Source: Bacteroidales bacterium (GTDB taxonomy: Bacteria; Bacteroidota; Bacteroidia; Bacteroidales; UBA4181). Taken from it: a stretch of 29,941 nt of DNA. The notes below the pieces were generated by a model. It did not search any database and was not told the origin of the DNA. It saw nothing but the letters and a program-made list of their open reading frames with translations. Location: contig JAVBRP010000220.1 in assembly GCA_031547815.1 (NCBI GenBank), forward strand, positions 1 to 29,941, given 5' to 3'. Positions 3,610-23,395 of this stretch are shown piece by piece. Numbering within the stretch: the stretch's first letter is position 1; every line of letters begins with the position of its first letter. The translations under genes were made by a program, and so were the position numbers.

Positions 3610-5121
3610 TTATCTGCCAAATTTTGTTATGTCTATTTGTTTTAATATAGCAATCAGGACATCAACAACAATACTGTTGCCTGCTTGCCGATACATTTGC
3701 GTGTCGCTGACTACTTGTCTAAAGTTGTCTCTAAAGCCCATTAAGCGTAAACATTCTTTTGGGGTCAGTTTTCGAATTCTACCCTTGTTATGAGTTACAT
3801 AATTATCTATACCTGCACGATGCATTTTGTGCATAGTTTGCAAAAGTGGGCGAGCAATTTTTAAATCAGTTTTTGTACTTGTTTTAAAGTTCTTTGTTCC
3901 ACCTGCTAATACATAATCGCGGATATTATCCGATAAATAATATTTTTCTTCTACTGTATTTACATCAAAAATAAATTCATCGAATTCGCTGTCGTTTACA
4001 ATTTCAAAAACAAAATCGCCATGCCAATTGAATTGTTGATTTGCTTTTTGGCATAGCGCAACATCTCCGTTTATTTGAGTATATCTCTTATTTTTATTCT
4101 TTGAGCTGGTAACGAATTTTATACCTTTTTCTTTGAGGTAATACTTTGAATCAGTATAATCTTCAAGAAAATCTTGCATAGTAGACTCTAATTTGATTTT
4201 ACAAGGAAAGTTATATCGAATATTATGGTCTTTAAATCCAATGACAATTATTCGTTCTCTGTTTTGCGGAATTCCATAATCCTTACTATTTAAGACTTGA
4301 TGATACGTTTTATAACCTAATTCATCAAATACATCTTTTACCACTTGCCAAGTTTTTCCATTGTCATGGTTTATTAACCCTTTTACATTTTCGTATATAA
4401 AAACTTGGGGCTGTGTTTCATTAACAACTCTTGCAAAATCATAAAACAGAGTGCCTCTAATATCTTCTAATCCCTTTCTTTTTCCAACCATTGAAAATGC
4501 TTGGCAAGGACTTCCTCCTACTAATAAGTCTATCTCTCCTTTATATTTTTTTGCTGAAAATTTAGTAACATCATTATGCCAATCTTTTGGGTTGATATTG
4601 TAATTTGCAAAATAACTTTGCTTTACATGAGGGTCTATATCTCCTGCGAAAACAATAGGGTGATTAAGTTTTAATCGTTGAAAAGCATGTTCTATGGCTC
4701 CAATACCACTAAACAATGTGCCAATTTTGATTTCGGCGTTCGGATTTGAGAATATTTTTGTTCGCCAATCGTCAATAGGAAATAAATCTAAAATGGGGTA
4801 CTCTATAGTATCCTCTTTCCCTTGACTTTTTGTAAAGTATTCTACTTTTTGTTCAGCCAATTTTAGGACTGAAGTGTCATAGTTATTTTCGCAGAGTTGT
4901 TTTGCAATTTTTTCACTGAGTAATTCTTTTTGCATTACGCTATAATTCAATTGGAAAATATCGCAAACCTTTGAAAGCCTTTTATTGTCTAATTCCCGTT
5001 TCCCACTTTCAATTTTACTTAGATTAGCAGTATCTATATCAAGAGAATTTGCTAATTGCGACAGGGAAAAGCCTCTATTTATCCGCAAACTTTTCAGGTA
5101 TTGTCCGAATGTAAAGTCCAT
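3610..5121 (-). CDS. XRE-HTH-fused DNA (cytosine-5)-methyltransferase
   Basis: C5-MTase motifs I (LFSGIGA), IV (GGSPCQAFS), VI (YENVKG), VIII (QNRER), IX (RKLTPKECLRLMGF) and X (YRQAGNSI). N-terminal FGQYLKSLR...SQLANSLDIDTANLSKIESGKR is an XRE-type HTH. Start placed at 5121 because a TAnnTTTG promoter element lies inside the longer 5181 ORF. Confidence 0.93.
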   Translation of the reverse strand: MDFTFGQYLKSLRINRGFSLSQLANSLDIDTANLSKIESGKRELDNKRLSKVCDIFQLNYSVMQKELLSEKIAKQLCENNYDTSVLKLAEQKVEYFTKSQGKEDTIEYPILDLFPIDDWRTKIFSNPNAEIKIGTLFSGIGAIEHAFQRLKLNHPIVFAGDIDPHVKQSYFANYNINPKDWHNDVTKFSAKKYKGEIDLLVGGSPCQAFSMVGKRKGLEDIRGTLFYDFARVVNETQPQVFIYENVKGLINHDNGKTWQVVKDVFDELGYKTYHQVLNSKDYGIPQNRERIIVIGFKDHNIRYNFPCKIKLESTMQDFLEDYTDSKYYLKEKGIKFVTSSKNKNKRYTQINGDVALCQKANQQFNWHGDFVFEIVNDSEFDEFIFDVNTVEEKYYLSDNIRDYVLAGGTKNFKTSTKTDLKIARPLLQTMHKMHRAGIDNYVTHNKGRIRKLTPKECLRLMGFRDNFRQVVSDTQMYRQAGNSIVVDVLIAILKQIDITKFGR

Positions 5122-9376: not shown

Positions 9377-9949
9377 ATGGCCGACCGATTCAAAATTCGG
9401 CACGAACAATTTTTCGAGCAACTTTACAAAAGCCGCTACCCCAAGTTAGCCGCTTACGCTTCGCTGTTCCTGAAAAGTGAAGAAGCGCACGATGCGGTGC
9501 AGGAGGTTTTTCTCGACCTGTTGGAAAAAAAGAAAATACGGTTGGATGCCTCCACGCAGGATGCATATCTGTATCGGGCGGTTCAGAATAAATGCGTGGA
9601 TATGATACGGCACCGAACCGTCAAAGATCAATATTCGTCGGCTGCGGGTCAGAAATTGCTGCAAACCGAATCGGAATATTTTTATGCTTCGCGCAACGAA
9701 ATTGAAGACGCATTATTGTCGAAAGAGCTTCGCGAACATATAGATGCCGCCGTCGAAATGCTTCCGCCGAAAGGCCGTGAGGTGTTCAAACTGTATTTCG
9801 AACACCAAAAATCGGCCAAAGAGATCGGCGCCATTCTGGAAATTTCGCGCAGCACGGTCGAAAATCATATTTACACCTGCGTGAAAGCATTGAGATTGAG
9901 GCTTGCCAAGTATCTTTTTATTGGTTGGATACTGTTGCATTGTATGTAA
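9377..9949 (+). CDS. ECF RNA polymerase sigma-70 factor (PUL-associated type)
   Basis: DAVQEVFLDL (region 2), AYLYRAVQNKC, LPPKGREVFKL...SAKEIGAILEISRSTVENHI (region 4); adjacent to FecR-SusC. Confidence 0.95.
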   Translation: MADRFKIRHEQFFEQLYKSRYPKLAAYASLFLKSEEAHDAVQEVFLDLLEKKKIRLDASTQDAYLYRAVQNKCVDMIRHRTVKDQYSSAAGQKLLQTESEYFYASRNEIEDALLSKELREHIDAAVEMLPPKGREVFKLYFEHQKSAKEIGAILEISRSTVENHIYTCVKALRLRLAKYLFIGWILLHCM

Positions 9950-10144: not shown

Positions 10145-11146
10145 ATGGACAATTTAGACGATAAATTAATCGGAAAATATTTTAGCGGCGCTTGCACCGA
10201 AGCGGAAACGGAGCAAATTCTCCGATTTCTGAATGCTTCGGAGGAAAACCGAAGAGAATGGCTGAAACTGCGCATGGTTTCGGCCGAAAGCAACTTTGCC
10301 CGCATTTCCGATCCGGAACACGTCGATCGATCGTACCGTGAACTGCGAAAAGAAAAGGCGACACGCGAAAGACTCGAAAAAGAAATCGTCCGAAAAATAA
10401 CATTACGAGTTGTACGATTTGCCGCAAGTATTTTGTTGTTGGTCGGCGTCTCGTATGCTTCCTATAAAGTCGTATCCGATCGGGTATATCCCGAAATGCT
10501 GACCGTGGCAACCGGAACAAACGAACCCGTGCGGGAAATATTGCTGGGCGACAGCACCCGCGTTTGGCTTTCGGCGGAAAGCAAAATTGAATACCCGAAA
10601 CGATTTTCGGAAAAGGACCGAAACGTTTCCGTTGAAGGGAAGCTCTATTTTGAAGTGGCCAAAGACAGCCGACGTCCGTTTTTTGTCAAAACAGCCGACT
10701 ACACGGTGAAAGTGTTGGGGACAGCCTTCGAGATCACTTCATTTAAAGACGCCCGGTTGTCGGATGTTATTTTGGCGGAAGGGTCGGTAGAAGTACTGAA
10801 AAACGATCTGTCGACGTTGTGCCTGTTGCAACCGGGGCAACAATTCGAACTGAACAGACAAACCGGACGATTCCGCCTGAACGAAGTAGATGCGGAAGTT
10901 TATACGGGATGGCGCGGCGGAAAACTTGAATTCGACGGAATGACCTTTGCCGAAATCGCCAAAGTGCTCGAACGACATTATAATGTTCGCATCGTGTTGG
11001 CCGACGGCATTGCTAAAGAGCAACGCTTGGTGGGGTCGTTGAGTTTCGAGAAGGATATACATGAAATGATGAAAACCATCGAACAGGTTGTTCCTATTAA
11101 ATATAATGTAGCAGTGGATACGGTTGTATTTATTCAATCGAAATAA
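10145..11146 (+). CDS. FecR-family anti-sigma factor
   Basis: N-terminal cytoplasmic helices, TM segment (FAASILLLVGVSYASY), LGDSTRVWLSAESKIEYP, VEGKLYFEVAKD, VLGTAF, LQPGQ. Confidence 0.95.
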   Translation: MDNLDDKLIGKYFSGACTEAETEQILRFLNASEENRREWLKLRMVSAESNFARISDPEHVDRSYRELRKEKATRERLEKEIVRKITLRVVRFAASILLLVGVSYASYKVVSDRVYPEMLTVATGTNEPVREILLGDSTRVWLSAESKIEYPKRFSEKDRNVSVEGKLYFEVAKDSRRPFFVKTADYTVKVLGTAFEITSFKDARLSDVILAEGSVEVLKNDLSTLCLLQPGQQFELNRQTGRFRLNEVDAEVYTGWRGGKLEFDGMTFAEIAKVLERHYNVRIVLADGIAKEQRLVGSLSFEKDIHEMMKTIEQVVPIKYNVAVDTVVFIQSK

Positions 11147-11330: not shown

Positions 11331-14300
11331 ATGAAAATTTTTAAAATCAATGCATTCATTGATCAAAATTTTATTGTGCAAATGACAAGAACAAGTTTTA
11401 TCTGCATGGTTCTCTTCATACTTGCATTCAACTGTCTCGCTGTGAATACTTACTCGCAAACAGCCCGGTTGAGTATGAATGTAAACAATCCGAATTTGAA
11501 AGATGCTATTGTGGAGATCAAAAAGCAAACCGAATTTGATTTCCTGTACAGCAAGGACATCGAACCGCTTTACCGCGAAAATGCGTCCATTACGGTAGAT
11601 AATGGTACGATTGAGGATGTTTTGAGCCAATTGTTCAAAAACAGCCGAATCGATTACCGGATCATCAACAAGACCATCGTGTTGGTGCCGGGAAGTTTGG
11701 AAAACAATGCCCTGCAAGGATTCACCATTACCGGTATCGTAACCGACTCCGAGGGCAATCCGCTGCCGGGAGCATCCGTGGTGATCAAAGATGCTGCGCG
11801 GGGAACCGTAACCGACCTCAACGGCGCTTATTCCTTGCAGGTGCCCGCCGGGAATACCGTTCTGGTATTTTCGTTTGTGGGGTATACGACGCAAGAATTT
11901 ATTGCGGGAGACCAACGCGTTATCAATGTTACGCTCAGCGAAGACGCGCGCGAGCTTGAAGAAGTGATCGTTATTGGTTACGGAACAGCCAAAAGGCAAG
12001 AATATACCGGCTCGGTCGGCTCCGTGAAAGTGGAAAACACATCCCTTGCGCTGATGCCCAATTTAAACGCTTTGGAATCGCTGAAAGGCACCGTTGCGGG
12101 TATGAATATCGGCGCGGTCAATTCGGCCGGCGGCGAGCCGAATATGTTGATCCGCGGTCAAAACTCCATAAACGGGGATAATAAACCGTTGATCTTATTG
12201 GACGGGGTGATTTTCATGGGCAGTTTAGCCGACATCAACCCAAATGACATTGCAAGTTATGATGTTTTGAAAGACGCCGTGTCATCTGCCGCTTATGGCT
12301 CAAGATCGGCCAACGGCGTCATTTCCATCACCACCAAAAAAGGACGATCGCCCAAACCCGTCATCACCCTGAACGCATCCGCCGGCGTGCAAACATGGCC
12401 CAATCGCCCGGAGGTACTGAAAGGTGAAGAATGGTTGGAAATTGTCAATCTGCGCAACGGCAATTCCGAAGGCACTACCTCGTGGTTGAGCGCCGGCGAG
12501 TTGGCCAACAGGGAGAATAATAAGGAAACGGTATGGTTAGACGAAGCAACCCGTGTCGGCACCATGCAGGACTATCAATTGTCGGTTTCCGGAGGAAGGG
12601 AAGGTATTAACTATTACCTGTCGACATCGTACAATAATAACCACGGCGTGGTGATCGGCGATGAGTTCGAGCGTATTTCCGTTTTCGGGAAAATAAATAC
12701 CGATATTACCGGCTGGCTGAATATCGGGGCAGATGCGAATTTTTCGCGCCTGAACTATCAAAACGTTCACGCAGCCATCAACGTCGCGCAATTGATGTCT
12801 CCTTATGGCGTTATGTACCGTGACGACAAGGGAAATCTCGAACGGTATCCGTACGGGCAGTCGCTTGCCAACCCGTTGTGGGGTGTGGAAGATAATACGC
12901 GCGACAGATTGGATATGCGAAATTCTTTCCGGCTGAACACGTATGCGGTAGTTCGTCTTCCGTGGGTAAAGGGATTGAGTTATCGTATTCACTTCCTGCC
13001 CAATCTCCGCCAAAGCAGAATCGGTAATTTTTTCCACGAAAATTATTATATCGGCGAAGGAGAGGGAATAGAACGTTATGCCCCTGCGGAAACACAAAAA
13101 CAATTGACAAACGCCAATGGCAACATGCTCCAAAACAGGACGTACAGTTATGTGTTCGACAACATTCTTACCTATAAAAATACATTCGGCAAGCACGGCG
13201 TAGAAGCTACTCTGGTGGCAACGCGCGACCGTACGGAATTTGACAGAACCTACATCACCGGGAAAGATTTTGTCGCTAACGGAAATACTTCGTTGGGCAT
13301 GTGGGCGCTTCATAAAGCCGGCGTCCAAACAATCACTCAGGGACCTGATTGGGAAAGAGCCAACATCGGTTATCTGGCGCGCGCCAATTATTCTTATGAA
13401 AGCAAATATTTTTTCACCGGATCGGTACGCAGGGACGGCGCCTCGGTGTTCGGAGAAAATCGCAAATGGGGAACATTCGCTGCCGCAGGTGTGGCGTGGC
13501 GGATTACGGAAGAAAATTTCATGAAACGAATAGACTTCCTGAACAACTTGAAATTGAAATTCGCATGGGGACAAAACGGTAACCAGGGAGTAGACCCCTA
13601 CACAACGCTGTCGAAAGTAGTGAACGGGGCAACCAGCGGTTTACCCTACGAATTTTCAAATACGGGATCGACCATTTATTACGGATTGAACCAAACCGAA
13701 ATGGGTAATGCCGATCTGGGATGGGAAAAAACCAATGCTTGGAATATCGGTTTTGAGTCGGCTTGGCTGAGGAACCGGCTGTTCGTCGATCTGGATATGT
13801 ATTATTCGCAAACCACCGACCAAATTTTTGAACGGAATATCCCGGTCATGACCGGTTTCAAAACGGTTTACTCATCCATGGGGCGAGTAGACAACAAGGG
13901 CGTGGAACTTAATATCCGCTCGGTGAATATCGAAGCCGGGGATTTGACATGGATGAGCAACCTCACCTTTTGGCTCAACCGGAATAAATTGGTGAAACTT
14001 TACGGGGAGTTGGATGCAAACGGCAAGGAAAAGGACGATATCGATAACTCATTGTTTATCGGCAAATCGTTAAGTGCGATATACGGATTCAGACAAATCG
14101 GAATCGTACAGGAAGACGATACGGAGTATATCGCACAAACGGGTATTCAACCCGGTATGCCCAAGTATGCCGATTTGGACGGTAAAGCCGGTATTTCGGC
14201 GGACGGGGATCGTGAGATATTGGGATACGGTAAGGAAAATTTCCGGCTGAATCTTGGCAATACGGTAAGTTATAAAGGTTTTGAACTCTATGTATTGGTT

Positions 14301-14708
14301 ACGGGTATTTTCGGCGGTAACAATTGGTATATGAAAGAAAATACGCGGGCTTATTTGATGGGTACCGGCGGAAGGTTCAACGAAAATACGGTAGCCAAGC
14401 CTTACTGGACGCCCGAGAACAAGAGTAACGAGTATCCGGCGTTAGGGTTCGTCGGCGACGGCGGCAAGTTCTTAGGACTTCAGTCGCACGGGTTTGTCAG
14501 GATACAGGATATTGCCTTTTCCTACACCTTCAATCAACCGTGGGTTAAAGCCGCAAAAATCAACGCGCTCAAAGTGTTCTTCACAGCCAAGAATGTAGCA
14601 TGGTTCACCAAATGGGACGGAGGCGATCCCGAAACCGCCGCGCGTTACTTTGACGATACCTTACCGGTGGTGGCAACCTATTCTTTGGGACTTAACGTTA
14701 GTTTCTAA
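11331..14708 (+). CDS. SusC-like TonB-dependent transporter with N-terminal signalling (STN) domain
   Basis: N-terminal extension (LKDAIVEIKKQTEFDFLY), CarbopepD_reg-like domain (PLPGASVVIK), LEEVIVIGYG, plug (VLKDAVSSAAYGSRSANGVI), C-terminal YSLGLNVSF. The true start may be a downstream Met. Confidence 0.96.
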   Translation: MKIFKINAFIDQNFIVQMTRTSFICMVLFILAFNCLAVNTYSQTARLSMNVNNPNLKDAIVEIKKQTEFDFLYSKDIEPLYRENASITVDNGTIEDVLSQLFKNSRIDYRIINKTIVLVPGSLENNALQGFTITGIVTDSEGNPLPGASVVIKDAARGTVTDLNGAYSLQVPAGNTVLVFSFVGYTTQEFIAGDQRVINVTLSEDARELEEVIVIGYGTAKRQEYTGSVGSVKVENTSLALMPNLNALESLKGTVAGMNIGAVNSAGGEPNMLIRGQNSINGDNKPLILLDGVIFMGSLADINPNDIASYDVLKDAVSSAAYGSRSANGVISITTKKGRSPKPVITLNASAGVQTWPNRPEVLKGEEWLEIVNLRNGNSEGTTSWLSAGELANRENNKETVWLDEATRVGTMQDYQLSVSGGREGINYYLSTSYNNNHGVVIGDEFERISVFGKINTDITGWLNIGADANFSRLNYQNVHAAINVAQLMSPYGVMYRDDKGNLERYPYGQSLANPLWGVEDNTRDRLDMRNSFRLNTYAVVRLPWVKGLSYRIHFLPNLRQSRIGNFFHENYYIGEGEGIERYAPAETQKQLTNANGNMLQNRTYSYVFDNILTYKNTFGKHGVEATLVATRDRTEFDRTYITGKDFVANGNTSLGMWALHKAGVQTITQGPDWERANIGYLARANYSYESKYFFTGSVRRDGASVFGENRKWGTFAAAGVAWRITEENFMKRIDFLNNLKLKFAWGQNGNQGVDPYTTLSKVVNGATSGLPYEFSNTGSTIYYGLNQTEMGNADLGWEKTNAWNIGFESAWLRNRLFVDLDMYYSQTTDQIFERNIPVMTGFKTVYSSMGRVDNKGVELNIRSVNIEAGDLTWMSNLTFWLNRNKLVKLYGELDANGKEKDDIDNSLFIGKSLSAIYGFRQIGIVQEDDTEYIAQTGIQPGMPKYADLDGKAGISADGDREILGYGKENFRLNLGNTVSYKGFELYVLVTGIFGGNNWYMKENTRAYLMGTGGRFNENTVAKPYWTPENKSNEYPALGFVGDGGKFLGLQSHGFVRIQDIAFSYTFNQPWVKAAKINALKVFFTAKNVAWFTKWDGGDPETAARYFDDTLPVVATYSLGLNVSF

Positions 14709-14728: not shown

Positions 14729-16537
14729 ATGAAAATGACAACATATTTTTGGAGATTGCTCCTTGCGGTGGTAATGTTCGCACAGGCAGGGTGTAATGAT
14801 AATGCTTTCCTTGAGGAAAAACCCACCACATTTTATACCATCGACAATGTTTTTTCCACATCCGAACAGGTAGATCAGGTGTTGATTGCGCTTTATACCC
14901 TCGCAAGAGATTTAAAGACCGGTGTCGGTAATGCTTGGGTTCACGACATGAAAATGAAAGGCACCGACATGTTCGACGTGTCGAGCATCAGATTGGCAGG
15001 AACTTTCAGCGATTACAGCATCGTCAATCCGCTTCACGATACGTTTTATAACGCATACAGCGCATGGTATTATATGGTTGCCCGCGCCAATTTGGCTTTA
15101 TATGCTATCGATTTACCTCAAATCACTTGGGCGTCGGACGACGATAAGGCTTATGCAGAGGCTCAAGCCCGTTTTTTCCGCGCTTATGCCTACAAAAATC
15201 TCGCGCAATTATTCGGCGGCGTAGCCCTTGTAAAAGAACTCCAAGAAGCGCCCCGGTTCGATTATGTACGCTCCTCGCGGGTAGAAACCTATCAATATGC
15301 CATTGATGAACTGTTGGCCGTCCTCGAAGATTTGCCGGAAACAACCGTTTCCGGAGGACGTATTGTACGGGGCGCCGCGCAGCACAACCTCGCGGAACTC
15401 TATCTGTCGATGGGCACGCAGTTGGCTGCCGACGGTAAAGCCGCCGAAGCACAAGCCGCTTTCGCTTCTTCCGTTAATTATGCCAACCTGTTGATTGACG
15501 GCGGAACATACAGATTGATCGGAAGTCGCTTCGGATCGCGAAAAGCCGAAAACAAATTCACGTTCAATGTTTACAGAAACGGTACAGCTTCCACACCCAC
15601 GAAAAACAATGTGGTAGACACCATTCAGGTCACCGCAAACTATTATTGGGACTTGTTTCAGGAAGGCAATATAAACTATCAGGACGGCAATACGGAATGC
15701 ATCTGGGCGGTTCAGGTCGATTTGGACGCTTATAAAACAGGAAAGAGTTCGGGATCGAGACTTGAGTATCCCCGCGTTTACGGGCCGGTAATGCGCGATG
15801 TACATTCCACGGTGATCCGCGGCACATTGGAAGATGTCGGCGGACGCGGAATCGGATCGATCATCCCTACCATGTACACGCGGGATGTGATATATGAAGG
15901 CAAATTTGCCAAGGATATGCGAAATTCCGAAGCGGTCTTCCGCAGACGATTCAAAGGGAATTATGATAATGCCGCTAATCTGTATTACCGTAAGGATATT
16001 CCGTGGGATTATTTGTACTACGGTAAGCCAAGCGCGAGCGACAATGACAATGCCCGCAGTTTGTGTTTCCCCCTTTCCTGTAAAATTTCTACCGATAAAT
16101 TTTCCGGTCTCGACAAAGGCGAAAACATGAGCCATCTGTTTCGCGACGAATACATCATCCGACTTTCGGAGACCGTCCTTGTGCGTGCCGAAGCCAAACA
16201 AAGGAGCGGCGACAAGACAGGTGCGGCGGCAGACATCAATATATTGCGCAAGCGTGCAAAATGCGACTACGAGGTTACGGCAGCCGATATGGATGACAAA
16301 TTCGATATGATCCTCGACGAACGCGCTCGCGAATTAGTGTACGAAGAATACCGCTGGCAGACCTTATTACGCATGGGCGGTACCATCGCCTCGGATCGTA
16401 TTCGCAAGTATGCGTATTGGCCGGCCACAGCAGCCACCCTTACCTTTAATTATAACCTGTGGCCCATACCGCAAACGGTTCTCGACTCCAATAAGGATTC
16501 GGAATGGAAGCAAAACCCGGGTTGGGAAAACAGGTAG
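14729..16537 (+). CDS. SusD/RagB family lipoprotein
   Basis: Lipoprotein signal ending AQAG-C; AEAQARFFRAYAY, IIRLSETVLVRAEA, INILRKRA, ILDERARELVYEEYRW, QNPGW. Confidence 0.95.
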   Translation: MKMTTYFWRLLLAVVMFAQAGCNDNAFLEEKPTTFYTIDNVFSTSEQVDQVLIALYTLARDLKTGVGNAWVHDMKMKGTDMFDVSSIRLAGTFSDYSIVNPLHDTFYNAYSAWYYMVARANLALYAIDLPQITWASDDDKAYAEAQARFFRAYAYKNLAQLFGGVALVKELQEAPRFDYVRSSRVETYQYAIDELLAVLEDLPETTVSGGRIVRGAAQHNLAELYLSMGTQLAADGKAAEAQAAFASSVNYANLLIDGGTYRLIGSRFGSRKAENKFTFNVYRNGTASTPTKNNVVDTIQVTANYYWDLFQEGNINYQDGNTECIWAVQVDLDAYKTGKSSGSRLEYPRVYGPVMRDVHSTVIRGTLEDVGGRGIGSIIPTMYTRDVIYEGKFAKDMRNSEAVFRRRFKGNYDNAANLYYRKDIPWDYLYYGKPSASDNDNARSLCFPLSCKISTDKFSGLDKGENMSHLFRDEYIIRLSETVLVRAEAKQRSGDKTGAAADINILRKRAKCDYEVTAADMDDKFDMILDERARELVYEEYRWQTLLRMGGTIASDRIRKYAYWPATAATLTFNYNLWPIPQTVLDSNKDSEWKQNPGWENR

Positions 16538-16891
16538 GAGAATTTGTGTACCCCGAAGAAAAGATTTTGCTTCCGCCAAGGGAAATTGCCTCAAAAACCG
16601 GCACCGGTTCCTCGTCGGGAGCAAATCGTTCCTCGAAAAAGGACAATCCTGCATACATTTTTGCGGAAGTTTCCACGAATAACTTCGTTATCGCCCGGAA
16701 ATCAACCGATGTTGCCTTAAATAATAGAATAGCAGCCGCAAAAGAAAACAAAAAAATGCCTCTCCGGAGGCAAATTGCCTCACCCGGAGGAATGTTGTCG
16801 GTTTTTGAGGCAATGTTGTCGGTTTTTATAGCAATTTCGGACGGAAAAATAAGGATGCCGGGATAATTCGGGAAGACATCGGGACAATTAA
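16538..16891. repeat. Degenerate 21-nt-period array in two head-to-head blocks
   Basis: N[G/T]C[C/A] recurs at exact 21-nt steps (16587, 16608, 16629, 16650, 16671, 16692, 16713, 16734, 16776). AT recurs at 16792, 16813, 16834, 16855. ATTGCCTCAAAAACCG (16585-16600) is perfectly inverted at 16799-16814. Confidence 0.75.
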
Positions 16892-17270
16892 TAATGCGAA
16901 TCAAGGGTTGGATTTGGGCTAAAGCCCTTGATTATTTGTGCATTCGTAATCCATTGGCTAAAGCCAACGGCAATAATTTGAGATAGTGTTGCTCATCGTT
17001 GCCGTCTGCTTTAGCTGACGGATAAATTTGAGTAGTGTCGTGTCAACAACAAAATGACGGTTTCGTCGGCGATAGAGTCACGTAGCGACGACATCTTTGT
17101 AGCCCCCCGGGATGATAATCCCGGGTATTGAATGCGCCAATCAAATCTTGAGCCGCGTAGCGGCGACACCTTATTGGCAATATCGTCATTTCGCTGTTGA
17201 CACGACAGTGGCCTATCTATGGGGCTTTAGCCAAAACAGTAAAGCATTTTTCAACCCTTGATTCGCATTA
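16892..17270. mobile_element. About 380-bp MITE-like element with 19-bp perfect terminal inverted repeats, carrying REP hairpins
   Basis: TAATGCGAATCAAGGGTTG (16892-16910) / CAACCCTTGATTCGCATTA (17252-17270); internal GGCTAAAGCC-family palindromes at 16913-16927, 16951-16973, 16999-17021 and 17221-17236; no transposase. Confidence 0.75.
17036..17207. mobile_element. Nested 172-bp MITE-like element
   Basis: 24-bp terminal inverted repeats with 2 mismatches (TGTCGTGTCAACAACAAAATGACG at 17036-17059; reverse complement at 17184-17207), enclosing two GAG(T/C)C(A/G)CGTAGCG(A/G)CGACA copies (17075, 17150) and a CCCGGG hairpin. Confidence 0.65.
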
Positions 17271-17310
17271 ATAACAAAAACCTCCGGAATTTTGGAAATT
17301 CCGGAGGTTT
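17270..17310 (-). terminator. Intrinsic terminator / REP-like hairpin after the 155-aa gene
   Basis: 15-bp perfect stem AAACCTCCGGAATTT (17278-17292) / AAATTCCGGAGGTTT (17296-17310), followed on the minus strand by TTGTTATT. Confidence 0.7.
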
Positions 17311-17376
17311 ATCGAAACCGGTTCTTAAAAATGGTAAATACTTTTCAAAGTTATGGGCCGGGGGTAGGTTTCCCCA

Positions 17377-17844
17377 TCAGCTCTTTGGTTTGCCGGCGCC
17401 CCTTCCGGGAAATCGCGGCGACAATTCCTGTACGGCCTCCCTTGCTCCGGGGATACTCCGATGCTGGCCATCCTTGGCGCCGTTGTATATGGAAAGACCG
17501 ACGACCAACGCTTCGTTGCCGCACAACTGAGCGGAATCCTTCAACTTACTCGTTACAGGATTCAGCGCCCGAAGAATGCGATTCAACGCCTTATAGGCTT
17601 CAAAATCCTTGCGGGCTTCGTCCAAATCGACGTACGAAGGCAAAAGTACCGGATTCTGCCCGGCAATGTCAATCGCCTTTTCAACAAAAGGGCTTGACTT
17701 GTCGCCCATCAGGGCCATACCTTTTCGTTCGTCTTCCGTAAGAACAATCAAGCCTTGAGGCAGAAGCGAGTTAAGTTCCGCAATTTTATTCAATATTTCC
17801 TGTTCGATTTGCGGATCAATAGTGATCGAAATTTTATTATTCAT
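17377..17844 (-). CDS. Conserved-looking hypothetical alpha-helical protein (155 aa)
   Basis: ATG with AT-rich upstream region and its own terminator; natural-looking amphipathic sequence (LTEDERKGMALMGDKSSPFVEKA...QNPVLLPSYVDL...LSPRFPGR). It resembles a widespread uncharacterised family as I recall it, but I cannot name a Pfam. Confidence 0.85.
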   Translation of the reverse strand: MNNKISITIDPQIEQEILNKIAELNSLLPQGLIVLTEDERKGMALMGDKSSPFVEKAIDIAGQNPVLLPSYVDLDEARKDFEAYKALNRILRALNPVTSKLKDSAQLCGNEALVVGLSIYNGAKDGQHRSIPGAREAVQELSPRFPGRGAGKPKS

Positions 17845-17981
17845 AAAGAAAACATTTTAAAGATTAAAAACAAGGTGTTATTCAAGAACCGGTTATAAGC
17901 CGTATTTCATGTTATACGTAAGCCTTTTGTTGATGTTTCAGTATTAAATTTATAATTTTAACATTTTTAGCCTTAAAAATA

Positions 17982-20900
17982 ATGAAAAATATTCTTTTCG
18001 GCCTCATCGTTCTCTTATTCTTATCGGGGTGCCGGTCCGGCAACAAAAAAAGCCCTGACGCCGGTTTTACCGTTCCCTTCACACCCTCAGGTAACCTCGA
18101 AGCCGAGTTCCAAAACCCGCCCGATTATGCTCGTACCCGTGCTTACTGGTGGTGGCTCGAAGGTTACATCAGCAAGCAAGGCATCACGGATGACCTCACG
18201 GCCATGAAAGAAGCCGGCATCATGGGAGCGATTGTTTTCGACGCGGGAGGTTCGACCTCCGGACGTAAAGCATCGGTTCGCACGCCCTTAGGCCCCGGTT
18301 TCGCAACACCCGAATGGCGCGACCTGTTCGTGTATGCTTGTCGGGTAGCCGACAGCCTCGGCATAGAGATCAGCATGAACATCACCAGCGGGTGGAACGA
18401 TGGCGGCCCGTGGGTAACGCCCGAATACGCTTCACAGAAATTGGTATGGAGTGAAACCTTTGTCGACGGCGGCAAAAAAATAGATATACAACTGCCGTTG
18501 CCCGAAAAATTACTTACTTACGAAGGTTCGGATCAGCCGTACTCTAAGCCGGTAGCGGTATTGGCCATGAAACTTACGGAAGATGCCGACTCGGTGAAGC
18601 CTTTACCGCATTTCGACATCAAGGCCGTCCACACCATACGTACCATCCCGCAAACGCCCGACGGTTTGGGTTACGATTGGGAAACTTTCGTCCGCCCGTT
18701 GCCCGACGATTTGAAAGGCTGCCATGCCCGTTCGGAAGACGTTACGGACATCAGCAAATATGCGGATGCCGAAGGCCGTATCCGATGGGATGCTCCCGAA
18801 GGGCGTTATGCCATTCTGCGTTTCGGACACACCGGAACGGGCGTGAAAGTGTCCACCCACAGCCCCGGCGCCGGAGGTTTGGCAATCGACTATATGAGCG
18901 TCGAAGCGATGGATTTACAGTTCAACAATGCGGTGATGCCGCTGCTCGAAGATTTGCAAAAGACGGGCGGCAAAAGTTTGCGCTATTTGCATGACGACAG
19001 TTGGGAATTAGGCGCCGCCAACTGGACGCCCCGGATGGAAAAGGCTTTCTCCGAAGCCAACGGTTACGACATCCGCAAGTACCTGCCCGTGATAGCCGGC
19101 AAGATTGTCGAAAACCACGACGTGAGCGAACGCTTCCTGTACGATTTTCGCCACACCATTGCCGAGCTGATCGAAAAAAATCATTACCAAAGGTTCAAGG
19201 AGTTGTCGCACAAATACGGCATCGGGATACATCCCGAATCGGGAGGGCCGCATCCGGCGCCGATTGACGCACTGAAAAACCTCGGCCAAAGCGATATTCC
19301 GATGGGCGAGTTTTGGGCAATCGCCAACACGCATCGCGTACTGCCGCAGCACCGCATATTCATCAAACAGGGAGCATCGGCGGCGCATATTTACGGTAAA
19401 CGCTTCATGCAGGCGGAAGGGCCTACCACCATCGGCCCGCATTGGGAGCGCGACCCTTGGATGCTGAAACCTACCATGGACAGGGTGTTTTGCGAAGGTC
19501 TCAATCGTTTTGTCATCCACACCTTTACCCATTCGCCGAGAGAAGCCGGCATTCCGGGGAACGAATATTTCGCGGGTACACATATCAACCCGAATACCAC
19601 TTGGTGGAACCAAGGAAAGGCTTTCTTGGAATGGTCGGCGCGTAACTCGTTCATGCTTTCGCAAGGATTTTTTGCAGCCGATGTCGCTTTTTATTACGGC
19701 GACAACGTTCCCAATCAGGTTCCGCTCAAGCATATTGACGCGCGCCTCGGCGAAGGTTATGATTACGACGTGGTTAATTCGGATGTGATCCTGAACCGGA
19801 TGACCGCTCGCGACGGAAAGATATTTCTGCCCGACGGTATGAATTATCGGGTATTGGTACTGCCCAACCGCAAAGCGATGAATATTGATGTGCTCGAAAA
19901 AATCGAACAATTGGTGAAAGCCGGCGCCACGATTATCGGCCCCAAGCCCGAAACAACCGTCGGGCTGCGCAATTCGGCCGGTACCGAAAAACGGTTGAAT
20001 AAAATCGCCGACGCTCTTTGGGGAAAAATCGACGGAACAACCGTCATGGAAAACATATCCGGCAAAGGCAAGGTCGTTTGGGGAAAAACGATACGCGAAA
20101 CGTTGGAAAATACGGGTATTGTCGCCGATTTTGCATATTCGGGCGCCGCCACCGATGCGCATATCGATTATATTCACCGCACTATTCACGGTATTGCCGG
20201 AAAAGACAACATTCAAATATATTATGTGGCCAACCGATTGGAACGCGCGGAATTTGTACGATGCGATTTCCGTGTCGCCGGATTGCAACCCGAAATATGG
20301 TATCCCGAAAACGGGAAAATCGTTCCCGCGAATGTATACATCCAAAAAGACGGGCGCACCGGCCTTCCGTTGCATCTTGACCCGTTCGGTTCCGTGTTTG
20401 TAGTGTTCCGCCGTGCAGCGCAACAAGAACCCGTCACGGCAATCGATCGGGACGGTACGGCAATTTTTCCTCCGGCGCAACTTGTCGACACCTCCGGGGA
20501 ACCCATGTTCGAATATCTGCCCGACGGCAAACTTGCTTTCTATCGTAACGGCACATACACGCTGACACAAGGCGGCAAAGAAACAAAACATGTCGTTCAA
20601 TGCCCTCCCGATCGGGAAATCAAAGGCGCGTGGCGCGTATCGTTCGACCCCGATTGGGGAGTTTCCGCCGACGTCGCGTTCCCCGAATTGATTTCATGGA
20701 CGCAACACGCGCATCCCGACATCAAATATTATTCGGGAACGGCCGTTTATCATAAAACGTTCGCATTAAACGAGGATGAACTCAAAGATTTCCGCGTCAG
20801 GCTCGACCTCGGCGAATTGCATCACCTTGCCGAAATTCGGATCAACGGGAAATCTGCCGGCGTATGGTGGAAAAAACCGTTTGCCGGAGATATTACCGAT

Positions 20901-21098
20901 CGGGTGCATGCCGGCGAAAACACGCTGGAAATAGCCATTGTCAACCTCTGGCCCAACCGCCTGATAGGCGATCAATTCCTGCCCGAAGACCAACGTCGCA
21001 CCAAAACCAATGTAGTAAAATTCACCAAAGACACCCCGTTGTTGCCTTCGGGATTGATAGGCCCCGTACGGCTGTCGTTCGGCGCAAAAACATTGTAA
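17982..21098 (+). CDS. GH106-type alpha-L-rhamnosidase, lipoprotein
   Basis: Lipoprotein signal LLFLSG-C; NPPDYARTRAYWWW, SGWNDGGPWVTPEYASQKLVW, HDDSWE, C-terminal GH2-like sugar-binding domain (LDLGEL, NTLEIAIVNLWPNRLIGD, LLPSGLIGPV). Confidence 0.85.
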   Translation: MKNILFGLIVLLFLSGCRSGNKKSPDAGFTVPFTPSGNLEAEFQNPPDYARTRAYWWWLEGYISKQGITDDLTAMKEAGIMGAIVFDAGGSTSGRKASVRTPLGPGFATPEWRDLFVYACRVADSLGIEISMNITSGWNDGGPWVTPEYASQKLVWSETFVDGGKKIDIQLPLPEKLLTYEGSDQPYSKPVAVLAMKLTEDADSVKPLPHFDIKAVHTIRTIPQTPDGLGYDWETFVRPLPDDLKGCHARSEDVTDISKYADAEGRIRWDAPEGRYAILRFGHTGTGVKVSTHSPGAGGLAIDYMSVEAMDLQFNNAVMPLLEDLQKTGGKSLRYLHDDSWELGAANWTPRMEKAFSEANGYDIRKYLPVIAGKIVENHDVSERFLYDFRHTIAELIEKNHYQRFKELSHKYGIGIHPESGGPHPAPIDALKNLGQSDIPMGEFWAIANTHRVLPQHRIFIKQGASAAHIYGKRFMQAEGPTTIGPHWERDPWMLKPTMDRVFCEGLNRFVIHTFTHSPREAGIPGNEYFAGTHINPNTTWWNQGKAFLEWSARNSFMLSQGFFAADVAFYYGDNVPNQVPLKHIDARLGEGYDYDVVNSDVILNRMTARDGKIFLPDGMNYRVLVLPNRKAMNIDVLEKIEQLVKAGATIIGPKPETTVGLRNSAGTEKRLNKIADALWGKIDGTTVMENISGKGKVVWGKTIRETLENTGIVADFAYSGAATDAHIDYIHRTIHGIAGKDNIQIYYVANRLERAEFVRCDFRVAGLQPEIWYPENGKIVPANVYIQKDGRTGLPLHLDPFGSVFVVFRRAAQQEPVTAIDRDGTAIFPPAQLVDTSGEPMFEYLPDGKLAFYRNGTYTLTQGGKETKHVVQCPPDREIKGAWRVSFDPDWGVSADVAFPELISWTQHAHPDIKYYSGTAVYHKTFALNEDELKDFRVRLDLGELHHLAEIRINGKSAGVWWKKPFAGDITDRVHAGENTLEIAIVNLWPNRLIGDQFLPEDQRRTKTNVVKFTKDTPLLPSGLIGPVRLSFGAKTL

Positions 21099-21115
21099 AC
21101 ATTATTTATCCAAAT

Positions 21116-23395
21116 ATGAAATCTCATTTCCTATTCTTCAACATTCTTTTTTGGAGTTGCATTTTCGTTGCCCGGTCGCAAACTCCGACAAGATTGCTCT
21201 GCAATCTTCTTTCGCGGCCCGAACAATCGGTGATTACCGACAACCGGTTGTCGTTCGGTTGGGAAGCGCCTTTCGGCAAGCAAACCGCATACCGCATATT
21301 AATTTCGTCCACGGCCGGAAAGGCCGCGCAACACGAGGGCGATGTGTGGGACAGCGGCGAAGTGAAATCGTCGCAATCCGTCAATGTGCCTTACAAAGGA
21401 CAATCCCTACAATCGGGGCGCAGTTACCTGTGGCAGGTGTCGGTGCGAGATGCGGCAGGCAACCGGTCGGATTGGAGTGCGGCGCAGCAGTTCAACATAG
21501 GCGAACCGTTCCGGCAGCGCTCGTGGCCGGGCGAAAGTCGCTGGGTAAAGATTCCGAGTTCCGGGTTTGGAGTTTCGGGTGGGGCAAAGCCGGTTAATTC
21601 GGAGCACGAAACCGATTCTATTTGGACATTCGAAAACCGCCATCCCATCAGCTACCATACGGTGACTCCCGTTAATTGGGCAAAGCGATTGAACGGCACT
21701 TTCTTTTACGATTTCGGTCGGGCGGCGTTCTCCAATGCCCGTTTCACCATCCGATCGCCCGTAAGCAATGATATTACCATCCGCATCGGCGAAAAAGCCG
21801 TGGGCGACAGTATCGACGGCAAGCCCGGCGGCGGAGTAATCTTTCAAGAATATCCGCTCGCTTTGAAACAGGGCGTTCACGATTACGAACTCGCCATTCC
21901 CCGTTTCGTGCCTCGTTATCCGCACAGCCAAGCCATGCCGGCGCACATGTCCGAAATCATCCCTTTTCGCTATCTTGAAATTGCGGCGGGCGATATATTC
22001 ATTACCGTTCATGATATGGAACAGCGGGCATTGTATTACCTGTTCGACGACAACGCCGCATCGTTTTCGTCATCCGACAACACGCTGAACGCCATCTATA
22101 ACCTGTGCAAATATTCCGTAAAGGCCAACACATTCAACGGCGACTATTCGGCAAGTCAGCGCGAACGCATGATGTACGAGGCCGATTGCTACATCCACCA
22201 GTTGGGAACCTACGCCATCGACCGCGAATACGCCATTGCCCGCTACAGCCTCGAAAACATGATTTACCACGCCACTTGGCCTACCGAGTGGATTTTGCAT
22301 ATTCCGCTGATGGCGTGGGCCGATTATCTGAACACGGGCGACATATCGCTCATTACGAAATATTATGACGATTTGAAGCCAAAAACATTGACGGCGTTGG
22401 CGGGCGATTCGACATTGATCAGTACCCGCACGGGTTTGCTCACGCAAGCGGTGTTCGACCAAATACATTTCGGTGGGAAAAAGATGCGCGACATTGTCGA
22501 CTGGCCGCAGGGAAGCATGTCTAAAGTCCGCAAGGGCGGCGAAACCGACGACTACGATTTCAGAACGTACAACACCGTGGTGAATGCGTTCCACTACCGG
22601 GCGCTGGTGCTGATGAGCAGAATGGCCGAAGCGTCGGGCAAAACAAACGACGCCAAATTCTACGGCCGAAGAGCGAAAGAGGTGGAAAAAGCCTTTAATA
22701 AATACTTTTTTGATGAAACGAGTGGAATTTACGTGGACGGGATCGGCAGTGCACATTCGTCGCTCCACGCCAACATGTTTGCGCTGGCATTCGGGCTTGT
22801 TCCCGATGCCCGTAAGGCGAAAGTAACGGATTTCATCAAGTCGAAAGGCATGGCTTGCGGCGTATACGGCGCCAACTACCTCCTCGAAGCTCTTTACGAC
22901 GCCGGAGAAGCCGATTACGCCTTGTCATTGCTCACGTCGGATAGCGATCGCAGTTGGGTGAACATGATTCGCGTGGGCGCCACCATGACCACCGAAGCAT
23001 GGGACACCAAGTATAAAAGCAACAACGGTTGGAGCCATGCATGGAGTTCGTCGCCGGTGCACATCATCCCCCGCAAGCTCATGGGTATTGAGCCGCTGGA
23101 ACCGGGGTTCGGGAAAATCCGCATCAAACCGCAACCGGCATCGCTAAAGCAGGCTTCGACAAAACTGCCGACGATACGCGGAACGGTGAATGTATCCTTC
23201 GAACAGGAGCCCGGCCGATTTTTCGAAATGGATGTGACCATTCCGGGCAATACGGTTGCCGAAATTTGGGTACCTTTACCGGCGGCCGAATACAAACTGA
23301 CGGTCGACGGAAAACCGGTAAAGGGAAAGGTCGACGGAAAGTTTGTGAAAGTGATGATGAATAAAAACCATGAACGAATAAGAATTGAACGATGA
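21116..23395 (+). CDS. GH78-type alpha-L-rhamnosidase
   Basis: Signal peptide from ATG 21116; Fn3-like N-terminus (QTAYRIL, VWDSG, YLWQVSVRD); (alpha/alpha)6 motifs (RERMMYEAD, WPTEW, GATMTTEAW, SHAWSSSP); C-terminal PTIRGTV. Confidence 0.85.
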   Translation: MKSHFLFFNILFWSCIFVARSQTPTRLLCNLLSRPEQSVITDNRLSFGWEAPFGKQTAYRILISSTAGKAAQHEGDVWDSGEVKSSQSVNVPYKGQSLQSGRSYLWQVSVRDAAGNRSDWSAAQQFNIGEPFRQRSWPGESRWVKIPSSGFGVSGGAKPVNSEHETDSIWTFENRHPISYHTVTPVNWAKRLNGTFFYDFGRAAFSNARFTIRSPVSNDITIRIGEKAVGDSIDGKPGGGVIFQEYPLALKQGVHDYELAIPRFVPRYPHSQAMPAHMSEIIPFRYLEIAAGDIFITVHDMEQRALYYLFDDNAASFSSSDNTLNAIYNLCKYSVKANTFNGDYSASQRERMMYEADCYIHQLGTYAIDREYAIARYSLENMIYHATWPTEWILHIPLMAWADYLNTGDISLITKYYDDLKPKTLTALAGDSTLISTRTGLLTQAVFDQIHFGGKKMRDIVDWPQGSMSKVRKGGETDDYDFRTYNTVVNAFHYRALVLMSRMAEASGKTNDAKFYGRRAKEVEKAFNKYFFDETSGIYVDGIGSAHSSLHANMFALAFGLVPDARKAKVTDFIKSKGMACGVYGANYLLEALYDAGEADYALSLLTSDSDRSWVNMIRVGATMTTEAWDTKYKSNNGWSHAWSSSPVHIIPRKLMGIEPLEPGFGKIRIKPQPASLKQASTKLPTIRGTVNVSFEQEPGRFFEMDVTIPGNTVAEIWVPLPAAEYKLTVDGKPVKGKVDGKFVKVMMNKNHERIRIER

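Follow-up and report, generated by a model that had tools for sequence, protein, structure and literature searches.

The stretch of DNA considered here, that is, the window, is contig JAVBRP010000220.1 (contig C52), 29,941 nt from a metagenome-assembled genome (MAG) of a Bacteroidales bacterium, the assembly of which ('own genome', below) is 3.03 Mb and 78% complete. An invertebrate-gut metagenome study has the same contig in its DNA libraries as well as in its RNA libraries. Following a SusD gene (14729-16537) there is a gap of 840 nt, and beyond that gap, on the minus strand at 17377-17844, is an open reading frame (ORF) call for a 155-aa orphan protein, P0003. It is this gap which holds the element at issue, a 21-bp phased array of approximately 16 degenerate units, lying in two blocks of opposite orientation, the distal and main part of which occupies 16540-16894 and has no assigned strand. 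Array and minus-strand gene are, as described here, two halves of one conserved module.

The units of the window array have as their core the half-sites TT[G/C]CCTC or GAGG[G/C]AA, which flank tracts of A5 or T5. A preliminary description of this DNA had pointed to a 21-nt periodicity over 16538-16891, and this is borne out, with identity at lag 21 of 0.399 versus 0.253 in 1000 dinucleotide shuffles (z of 5.96), a z which is unmatched by any shuffle over lags 1-63. Periodicity is seen also at lag 42 (z of 4.3) and lag 63 (z of 2.9), while for 16538-16790 alone, i.e., with a near-perfect tandem pair excluded, lags 21 and 42 give z of 3.7 and 4.7, respectively. The column of [G/T]C[C/A] that was said to recur in register is indeed found in nine of ten rows, versus a mean of 3.0 rows and a maximum of 7 for the best column in 5000 shuffles, though its true register is 16588+21k, one nt to the right of where it had been placed, and the miss is at 16756.

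The remaining internal symmetries, as first described, hold as well. The head-to-head arrangement of the two blocks is retained in all four homologous arrays. These blocks meet, in the window, at the palindrome GAGGCAAATTGCCTC (GAGGCAA-A-TTGCCTC; 16767-16781), a type of dyad of which this is the sole instance in the 3.03-Mb assembly, and single cognate palindromes are absent from the own genome outside of arrays. The sequence ATTGCCTCAAAAACCG at 16585-16600 is an exact 16-nt reverse complement of 16799-16814, within a long-range inverted repeat of 19-nt arms (16585-16603 and 16796-16814; 95% complementary, with 192 nt between). Two neighbouring units are near-identical, with AATGTTGTCGGTTTTT found at both 16791 and 16812, as is seen over 16791-16832 by repeat-family search and by Tandem Repeats Finder (TRF). 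TRF detects just this two-copy tandem, at 16787-16835, and misses the remaining units because they are too diverged. There are, in addition, open frames on both strands (16504-16866, plus; 16446-16904, minus), which is simply the outcome of a 21-nt unit being free of stop codons.

The array does not, however, end at 16891, as had been proposed. It is interrupted instead by a MITE-like insertion (MITE, a miniature transposable element with inverted repeats) at 16895-17274, itself outside of the module, with terminal inverted repeats of 23 nt and a TTAATAA that is duplicated, and it resumes at 17275. The resumed portion, 17275-17330 on the minus strand, is the gene-proximal end of the element, homologous past the MITE junction to two arrays found in a same-genus genome, G002. 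Upon excision of the MITE in silico, the window aligns gap-free over the junction with both of these G002 arrays. A terminator-like hairpin of 15 pairs followed by a run of T (17310-17278, minus strand) stands behind the P0003 gene. The MITE has separated the bulk of the window array from the gene's terminator. A second repeat element is nested within the MITE, for which a span of 16888-17274 is also given, and is bounded by an inverted repeat (17036-17059 and 17184-17207); the MITE core (17076-17185) has 16 more matches in the own genome, and its flanks have many matches across five same-genus genomes. As separate observations, a palindromic core, AACCGGTT, is found at 17316-17326 and 17884-17894, roughly 50 nt beyond either end of the orphan gene, and ACCGGTT is found also within the array (16604-16610).

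That array and orphan might be a two-component system had been suggested at the outset, and the flanks of homologs of the orphan gene do carry such arrays in three independent samples of loci. As related genomes are non-independent, the counts of linkage are descriptive. The first sample consists of ten homolog loci from same-genus and related genomes, with the top lag-21 window lying directly 3' of the stop codon in nine of these ten and with units that differ widely, e.g., GGATGACGTTTGATCCTTTAA versus AAAATACCCAAAAGGGTATTT. Included is a P0003 paralog (51% identity) on contig C46 of the own genome, the array of which had earlier been picked up weakly by a sequence model of the window array. 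The second was drawn evenly across the phylum and numbers 301 genomes, of which 25 carry the family, at up to six copies per genome, with 26 loci considered (25 best matches plus one, L065, by match coordinates). Downstream, the z at lag 21 (z21) exceeds 5 in 12 of these 26 loci and is 3-5 in six more; upstream it exceeds 5 in one. The third sample is of 80 loci, fetched from among 398 named-genome relatives as found using a four-sequence alignment as query, 74 of which were scored downstream and 73 upstream. Here z21 is above 5 downstream in 40 of 74 loci, and above 4 in 50 of 74, versus 2 of 73 upstream at either threshold, and the best lag, among lags of 8-69, is in strong arrays always 21, 42, or 63. 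Within the own genome, by comparison, 0.23% of windows exceed a z21 of 5. The contrast of downstream with upstream, together with this base rate, leaves little room for chance linkage. No conserved neighbour gene is seen to either side of the module in 39 loci.

The order of the module is that of a single small gene, often followed by a terminator hairpin, which is then followed by 4-17 contiguous, non-coding units. Terminator-like hairpins are found between gene and array in the window as well as at loci L048, L051, and L085. The period of the units is exactly 21 bp, often with super-units of 42 or 63 bp. Many units are dyads, i.e., two arms of 5-7 nt around an A- or T-tract, such as TTCCCT-CAAAACA-AGGGAA, which is of the type seen on own-genome contigs C11 and C46. 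These dyad-symmetric units occur in both orientations, with half-sites alternating every 10-11 bp or so and the full pattern recurring every 21 bp. In base composition, however, units range from AT-rich to GC-rich (e.g., an Azoarcus MAG, L148). A period that is kept while unit sequence varies points to a structural constraint which is tied to the protein, rather than to a bias of sequence or of lineage. Curvature due to A-tracts was considered as a common denominator of arrays and was rejected, as GC-rich arrays that are without A-tracts hold the 21-bp period as well.

Gene and array, to go by their sequences, diverge together, with unit sequence being locus-specific and inherited with the gene: protein identity correlates with array 7-mer similarity (Mantel r of 0.31, p of 0.0002), and the units behind the 51%-identical C46 paralog are of a TTCCYTC-A5-GAGGAA type, i.e., of the same kind as window units. 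Two further observations concern array extent. An identical 159-aa protein, P0006, is followed on one metagenome contig (L088) by approximately 10 units (4480-4800) and on another (L090) by approximately 17 (1288-1750); the copy number of the array behind it varies, then, in 21-nt steps, and such changes can be rapid. In addition, G-rich palindromes of the GGGGGGATACTTCGGAAGTACCCCCC type close the distal ends of arrays in three distant genomes, at L047 (+330 to +390), L051 (+295 to +335), and L091 (+255 to +290), with positions counted in nt after the gene. Such palindromes may mark another conserved component of the module.

Carriers of the family are found in many orders of Bacteroidota and also among MAGs labelled Treponema, Spirochaetia, Azoarcus, Verrucomicrobiota, Ignavibacteria, Melioribacteraceae, Calditrichaceae, and Cyanobacteriota, as well as in a Halioxenophilus isolate. 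Cultivable carriers include Draconibacterium aestuarii, D. sediminis, Solitalea agri, Breznakibacter xylanolyticus DSM 6779, and Carboxylicivirga marina. Strong arrays are present in Treponema MAGs (L110, L130, L135, L159) and in Azoarcus-labelled MAGs (L143, L148, L158). The isolate names of these MAGs share a naming pattern with those of several Bacteroidales MAGs, which suggests either horizontal spread within one habitat or instead binning errors.

These 21-nt arrays might instead be generic minisatellites, the mutational or selfish by-products of lineages in which repeats with periods that are multiples of 7 nt readily form. They would then have built up behind this gene incidentally, and the protein would not act on them, an explanation that we view as improbable. 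The own genome is not short of such repeats. Its tandem repeats are dominated by multiples of 7 nt, with periods of 7 (49 loci), 14 (14), 21 (24), 42 (8), and 63 (6), and it has approximately 25 further intergenic 21-nt arrays, of unrelated unit sequence and many at contig ends, whose neighbours are unrelated to the family (examples are C51:554-1065, C19:148-771, C248:7162-7610, and C322:3928-4418). The approximately 10 versus 17 units behind an identical protein would also be expected of a minisatellite. The base rate of 0.23%, along with 2 of 73 loci upstream, nevertheless cannot explain 40 of 74 downstream; the linkage spans MAGs labelled Spirochaetota, Verrucomicrobiota, Ignavibacteriota, Cyanobacteriota, and Pseudomonadota; and the window-type array is conserved per unit and almost indel-free at 20-32% divergence, unlike neutral minisatellites.

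A comparable element, and one which speaks for generic minisatellites, is BrickBuilt of Porphyromonas gingivalis. BrickBuilt (PMC4596501) is a single family of 23-nt units, at 19 copies per genome, with leader and tail and inverted-repeat ends; its abstract reports promoter activity, and no partner gene is described. The likeness is that of an intergenic, spacer-less tandem array with units of just over 20 nt in Bacteroidota, whereas the arrays considered here recur every 21 nt, have units which are specific to each locus, and come with a partner gene of their own. A BrickBuilt-like minisatellite MITE was rejected: the own genome has the window array only once, the units of other arrays are unrelated, and the ends of the G002 copies are without terminal repeats.

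Among solo arrays, i.e., those with no adjacent gene of the family, one at C11:2890-3090 (locus L086) is flanked by two divergent genes, for an FKBP isomerase and a GHMP kinase. The units there, of the TTCCYTC-A5-GAGGAA type, match those of the array of the C46 paralog, and this solo array may be a target in trans. Solo arrays more generally may serve as additional targets, may be relics, or may have been generated by the same process.

The window array itself has no second copy in its own genome by BLAST. Two copies are found in G002, however, at unrelated loci, one (L033:3916-4255) and the other (L034:3811-4150) being situated, respectively or in reverse, between genes for an FtsX permease and a BNR-repeat (sialidase-like) protein and between GH127 and SusC genes. 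Across these three copies there is a single 1-nt indel in 336 aligned nt, at 68-80% identity, with units matching one by one. A collinear homologous array, of approximately 69% nt identity, is found behind a terminator hairpin on the metagenome contig L085, which carries the closest homolog of P0003 (68% aa identity). Such near-absence of indels despite 20-32% divergence argues that the phase of the array is under constraint, and the window array is by these alignments an old, degenerate, indeed frozen copy, the units of which are conserved individually. No terminal inverted repeats or target duplications are seen at the ends of the G002 copies, nor are gene remnants found beside them.

Comparison of these homologous arrays speaks as well to coding. 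Variable sites among the three are distributed as 50, 55, and 48 of 112 per codon phase (p of 0.63), unit-to-unit variation shows codon phase in only 1 of 22 arrays at p<0.05, and neither of the ORFs spanning the array (P0001 and P0002) has a match in Pfam. By these measures the window array is a conserved non-coding element, and a heptad-repeat protein, whether decayed or live, is ruled out, as substitutions are not concentrated at one codon position. The preliminary description was right, that is, to doubt a coding heptad repeat. It was right too in setting aside CRISPR and, for the window copy, a simple variable-number tandem repeat. CRISPR arrays have constant repeats of at least 23 nt which alternate with unique spacers of similar length, whereas here there are contiguous 21-mers with few conserved positions and with neither constant repeat nor alternation of repeat with spacer. 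Three mechanisms had been offered for the array: a phased protein-binding lattice, a memory or guide array, and a fold-back RNA or ssDNA. The evidence leans toward the first of these. Nothing favours a memory or guide array, which was rejected given collinear inheritance between homologs without polarised acquisition; units, that is, are inherited position by position rather than acquired.

The array could also be an RNA partner of the protein. It would be transcribed, whether by read-through of the terminator or from a promoter of its own, with units serving as protein-binding RNA in the role of a sponge, of a scaffold, or of an inhibitor like those in type III toxin-antitoxin systems, all of which we consider unlikely, though less so than minisatellites. 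Modules of a protein with tandem repeats do exist, as of the ToxIN type, and many of the units could form short hairpins. The window array folds somewhat better than do shuffles on both strands, but modestly so (z of -2.2 and -2.75), and a constant length of unit could equally represent a fixed protein-RNA footprint. A 600-nt RNA-library contig, moreover, spans 16328-16927, thereby covering the 3' end of susD, the whole array, and the MITE edge. A separate metatranscriptome-library contig, from the same invertebrate-gut study, lies within the orphan gene (17419-17751). These RNA-library contigs (Logan) reveal neither strand nor expression level, and their word depths (approximately 160 for the gene, 5 for the array, and 3 for susD) cannot rank genes or strands and are not used here as evidence. 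That GH106 is without RNA-library contigs is likewise uninformative.

Other properties of the arrays are harder to reconcile with RNA. The array is found 3' of the gene, behind a terminator-like hairpin, whereas type III systems have theirs upstream. Relative to the gene, units may have their A-rich or T-rich side on either strand, a pattern for which double-stranded DNA is a better fit than RNA. Arms of units in the L048 array vary without preserving pairing, RNAalifold as applied to the four homologs gives a covariation term of +1.62, i.e., no support, and Rfam holds nothing better than an E of 0.2. For the latter (Rfam 15; E<=1; 16000-18200), the best match is DUF3577 RNA at 23.1 bits versus a gathering threshold of 42.6 (E of 0.21), which is sub-threshold and at the level of chance. 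Lastly, a period of exactly 21, or 2 x 10.5, in every lineage is more easily obtained from B-DNA geometry.

Type III toxin-antitoxin systems (ToxIN, CptIN, and TenpIN) are a close precedent for such an RNA. These possess an upstream array of two to six near-identical 34-45-nt units that acts as RNA. The likeness consists of a single protein of approximately 150-170 aa, adjacent short non-coding tandem repeats, and a terminator between. Here, by contrast, the array is downstream (40 of 74 versus 2 of 73 upstream), its 21-nt units are often highly diverged, and there is neither consistency of strand nor support from covariation. P0003 has no match to ToxN/AbiQ, CptN, or TenpN in Pfam, in PADLOC, or by fold search, though it may be a remote relative. 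A type III toxin-antitoxin identity was rejected, that is, owing to wrong order, wrong unit size, and the lack of a toxin-family match.

The protein half of the module belongs to a large family which lacks annotation. P0003 is without match in Pfam, NCBIfam, PADLOC, and PHROGs, while a profile search returns, at E<=1e-3, 4315 representatives of 50%-identity clusters, the named members of which are all annotated as 'hypothetical protein'. The AlphaFold2 model of P0003 has a mean pLDDT of 90.7 and is all-alpha, including one helix of 55 residues, and the protein ends with a basic C-terminal tail, RFPGRGAGKPKS. The family is mildly acidic (median pI of 5.7, net charge of the body of -4), with a short basic tail which often is RFPGR and then lysines. 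A homodimer is predicted, with an ipSAE of 0.82 versus 0.00 for the best of three controls, a mark which is reached by 20 of 30 proteins solved as one-chain pairs and by 1 of 23 solved as single chains; dimer runs agree in at least 93% of contacts, with a partner pLDDT of at least 86. The modelled dimer is intertwined, with long helices packed antiparallel.

The fold, too, appears to lack named relatives. Foldseek returns nothing from the PDB at E<=0.001, a wide VIA-align search finds only generic helical hairpins (Z of at most 6.3), the AlphaFold database clusters and ESM Atlas hold only uncharacterised relatives, and a protein-atlas feature search has no usable match. No ribbon-helix-helix or helix-turn-helix protein is matched in fold searches with this all-alpha, 55-residue-helix model. 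By tblastn, neither P0003 nor P0009 has a match among PLSDB plasmids, nor does P0003 have one among phages.

What does this module resemble? By analogy it would seem to work most like those systems which pair a protein with phased repeats, i.e., iterons and partition sites, whether classical or NTPase-less, though it lacks features by which members of those systems are recognised. Plasmid iterons are direct repeats of approximately 17-22 bp, spaced approximately two helical turns apart, that are found beside the gene of the Rep which binds them and that have replicon-specific sequences. Shared with iterons thus are two-turn spacing, an array beside a gene, and locus-specific units. Differing from iterons, there is no winged-helix protein of the Rep type (the 155-aa partner has no Rep-family match in Pfam or NCBIfam, so no Rep initiator lies beside the repeats), no replicon context, and no plasmid or phage match, while arrays are longer (up to 17 units) and have units in both orientations.

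The NTPase-less case is that of stbS of plasmid R388, which consists of ten 9-bp repeats with 2-bp spacers, i.e., an 11-bp cycle, in two sets, and to one DNA face of which StbA dimers are thought to bind, building a higher-order complex (bioRxiv 10.1101/2022.04.29.490116; PMC3098194). Here as there, one small protein is found with nearby helix-phased short repeats, and the two-block layout resembles that of the window array. Helix-phased repeats, as a feature of partition and StbA-type sites, are indeed present, with a period of 21, 42, or 63 bp in every strong array. StbA, however, has a PadR-like helix-turn-helix and its site is in its own autoregulated promoter, whereas P0003 has no recognisable DNA-binding fold, and the array instead is downstream, behind a terminator, without a unit-like operator upstream (1 of 22 loci). 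The period is two turns rather than one. Modules furthermore are chromosomal, at up to six per genome, rather than found on plasmids (no match in PLSDB), and the combination of plasmid carriage with a site in an autoregulated promoter is absent.

For classical partition of types Ib and II, in which small proteins bind the centromere, parH of TP228 is described as degenerate boxes with AT-rich spacers (PMC3130281) and ParR-parC of pSK41 and pB171 as contiguous repeats with cooperative binding and a continuous structure (as cited in the StbA/stbS paper). The likeness to ParG-parH and ParR-parC is that of repeats which are degenerate and yet phased. Both depend, however, on a ParA or ParM NTPase encoded next to them and employ ribbon-helix-helix proteins, whereas here the predicted fold is all-helical, and no adjacent ParA, ParM, or TubZ NTPase (partition types I-III) is found, there being no conserved neighbour in 39 loci and the neighbours in the window being susD and GH106.

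Those neighbours are part of a polysaccharide-utilisation locus (PUL), which is what surrounds the array. Besides SusD, it consists of genes for an ECF sigma factor (9377-9949), a FecR-like anti-sigma factor (10145-11146), and a SusC-like receptor with an STN domain (11331-14708), and then, beyond the orphan gene, GH106 (17982-21098) and GH78, listed as the ORF 20864-23395. The GH106 and listed GH78 ORFs share 235 nt (20864-21098), and the true start codon of GH78 probably is further downstream than listed. The module splits this PUL, antisense, between susD and GH106. In four relatives, GH106 orthologs (54-67% identity over the first 80-90 residues or so that lie inside the fetched stretches, 71-80% for the whole protein) are preceded by neither an orthologous susD nor the module. 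Synteny around these orthologs is too poor for the boundaries of an insertion, i.e., an empty site, to be defined.

Such a position within a PUL raises the idea of a mobile cassette. Gene and array together would be a small mobile element, with the array being a site of recombination, transposition, or packaging, much as Tn7 and Mu ends carry multiple phased sites. Copies of the array at unrelated loci would be accounted for in this way, there being 68-80% identical copies at three such loci in two genomes of one genus, and the splitting of the PUL and the absence of the module in front of relatives' GH106 genes also speak for it. We nevertheless find it the least credible of the alternatives. 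No recombinase or transposase is linked, with no gene conserved to either side in 39 loci; the G002 copies end without terminal inverted repeats or target duplications; the family is absent from the plasmids and phages searched, using two queries; and a 155-aa all-alpha protein matches no known transposase fold.

The reading we favour, to which we would give a probability of roughly 45%, is that the units are sites, phased two helical turns apart, for a dimeric protein, in the manner of centromere or iteron arrays. What leads us to infer a phased lattice is the combination of a two-part module that is conserved, units that are non-coding, a two-turn period that resists indels, divergence of units along with the gene, dyad symmetry, and a predicted symmetric dimer. 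The array, by this reading, would be a phased lattice of DNA sites and the partner of the neighbouring homodimer. With half-sites alternating approximately one helical turn apart, and full units two turns apart, all sites would be presented on one face of the helix, upon which the homodimer would assemble cooperatively into a higher-order nucleoprotein structure. Recognition of the locus-specific half-sites would fall to the body of the dimer, while A/T tracts may be contacted by the basic tail at the C terminus. Candidate roles for such a complex are as a landmark, as an insulator, as a silencer, or in upkeep of the module itself.

A number of findings weigh against this lattice. Solo arrays occur without an adjacent family gene, including the approximately 25 in the own genome with unrelated neighbours, and G002 has two close copies of the window array although identity to P0003 among the family members there reaches no more than 31%. 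Conversely, approximately one-third of homolog loci are without a clear array. A-tracts are not universal. A unit-like operator is found upstream of the gene, above local controls, in 1 of 22 loci, which is the level of chance. P0003 is without a DNA-binding fold that Foldseek or VIA-align can recognise, and the body of the protein is acidic, with only the short tail being basic. Confidence in the lattice is held to where it is by the putative nature of the binding, a fold that is not among known DNA-binding ones, the acidic body, the lack of an upstream operator, array-less loci, and solo arrays.

Full-text searches of literature on 21-bp repeat arrays in Bacteroidetes turned up no description of the module. 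A broader proposal, which we would hold only doubtfully, is that it represents a previously unrecognised class of chromosomal nucleoprotein, widespread across phyla, in which a homodimer of new fold polymerises on a private 21-bp lattice behind its own gene. Within such a class there may be several orthogonal protein-lattice pairs per genome, with solo lattices as added targets.

Whatever its function, this is a large family, without annotation in any library searched, that comes with an easily scored two-turn DNA signature, and this signature is kept in spirochaete, verrucomicrobial, ignavibacterial, and cyanobacterial genomes as it is in Bacteroidota. The arrays have practical consequences as well, as they break assemblies, with most carrier contigs being 1-5 kb, and create spurious ORFs on both strands. 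Carriers which can be cultivated make direct testing possible. Should the protein not bind the array, then strict linkage and an exact period still demand explanation. Should it bind, then each module would be a natural, orthogonal pairing of protein with DNA lattice, of relevance to chromosome biology and as parts for synthetic biology. The broader proposal, if true, would imply either a sequence-addressable DNA landmark or insulator system or instead a new selfish element consisting of gene plus site, and in either case one that is unrelated to partition, replication, CRISPR, or toxin-antitoxin systems.

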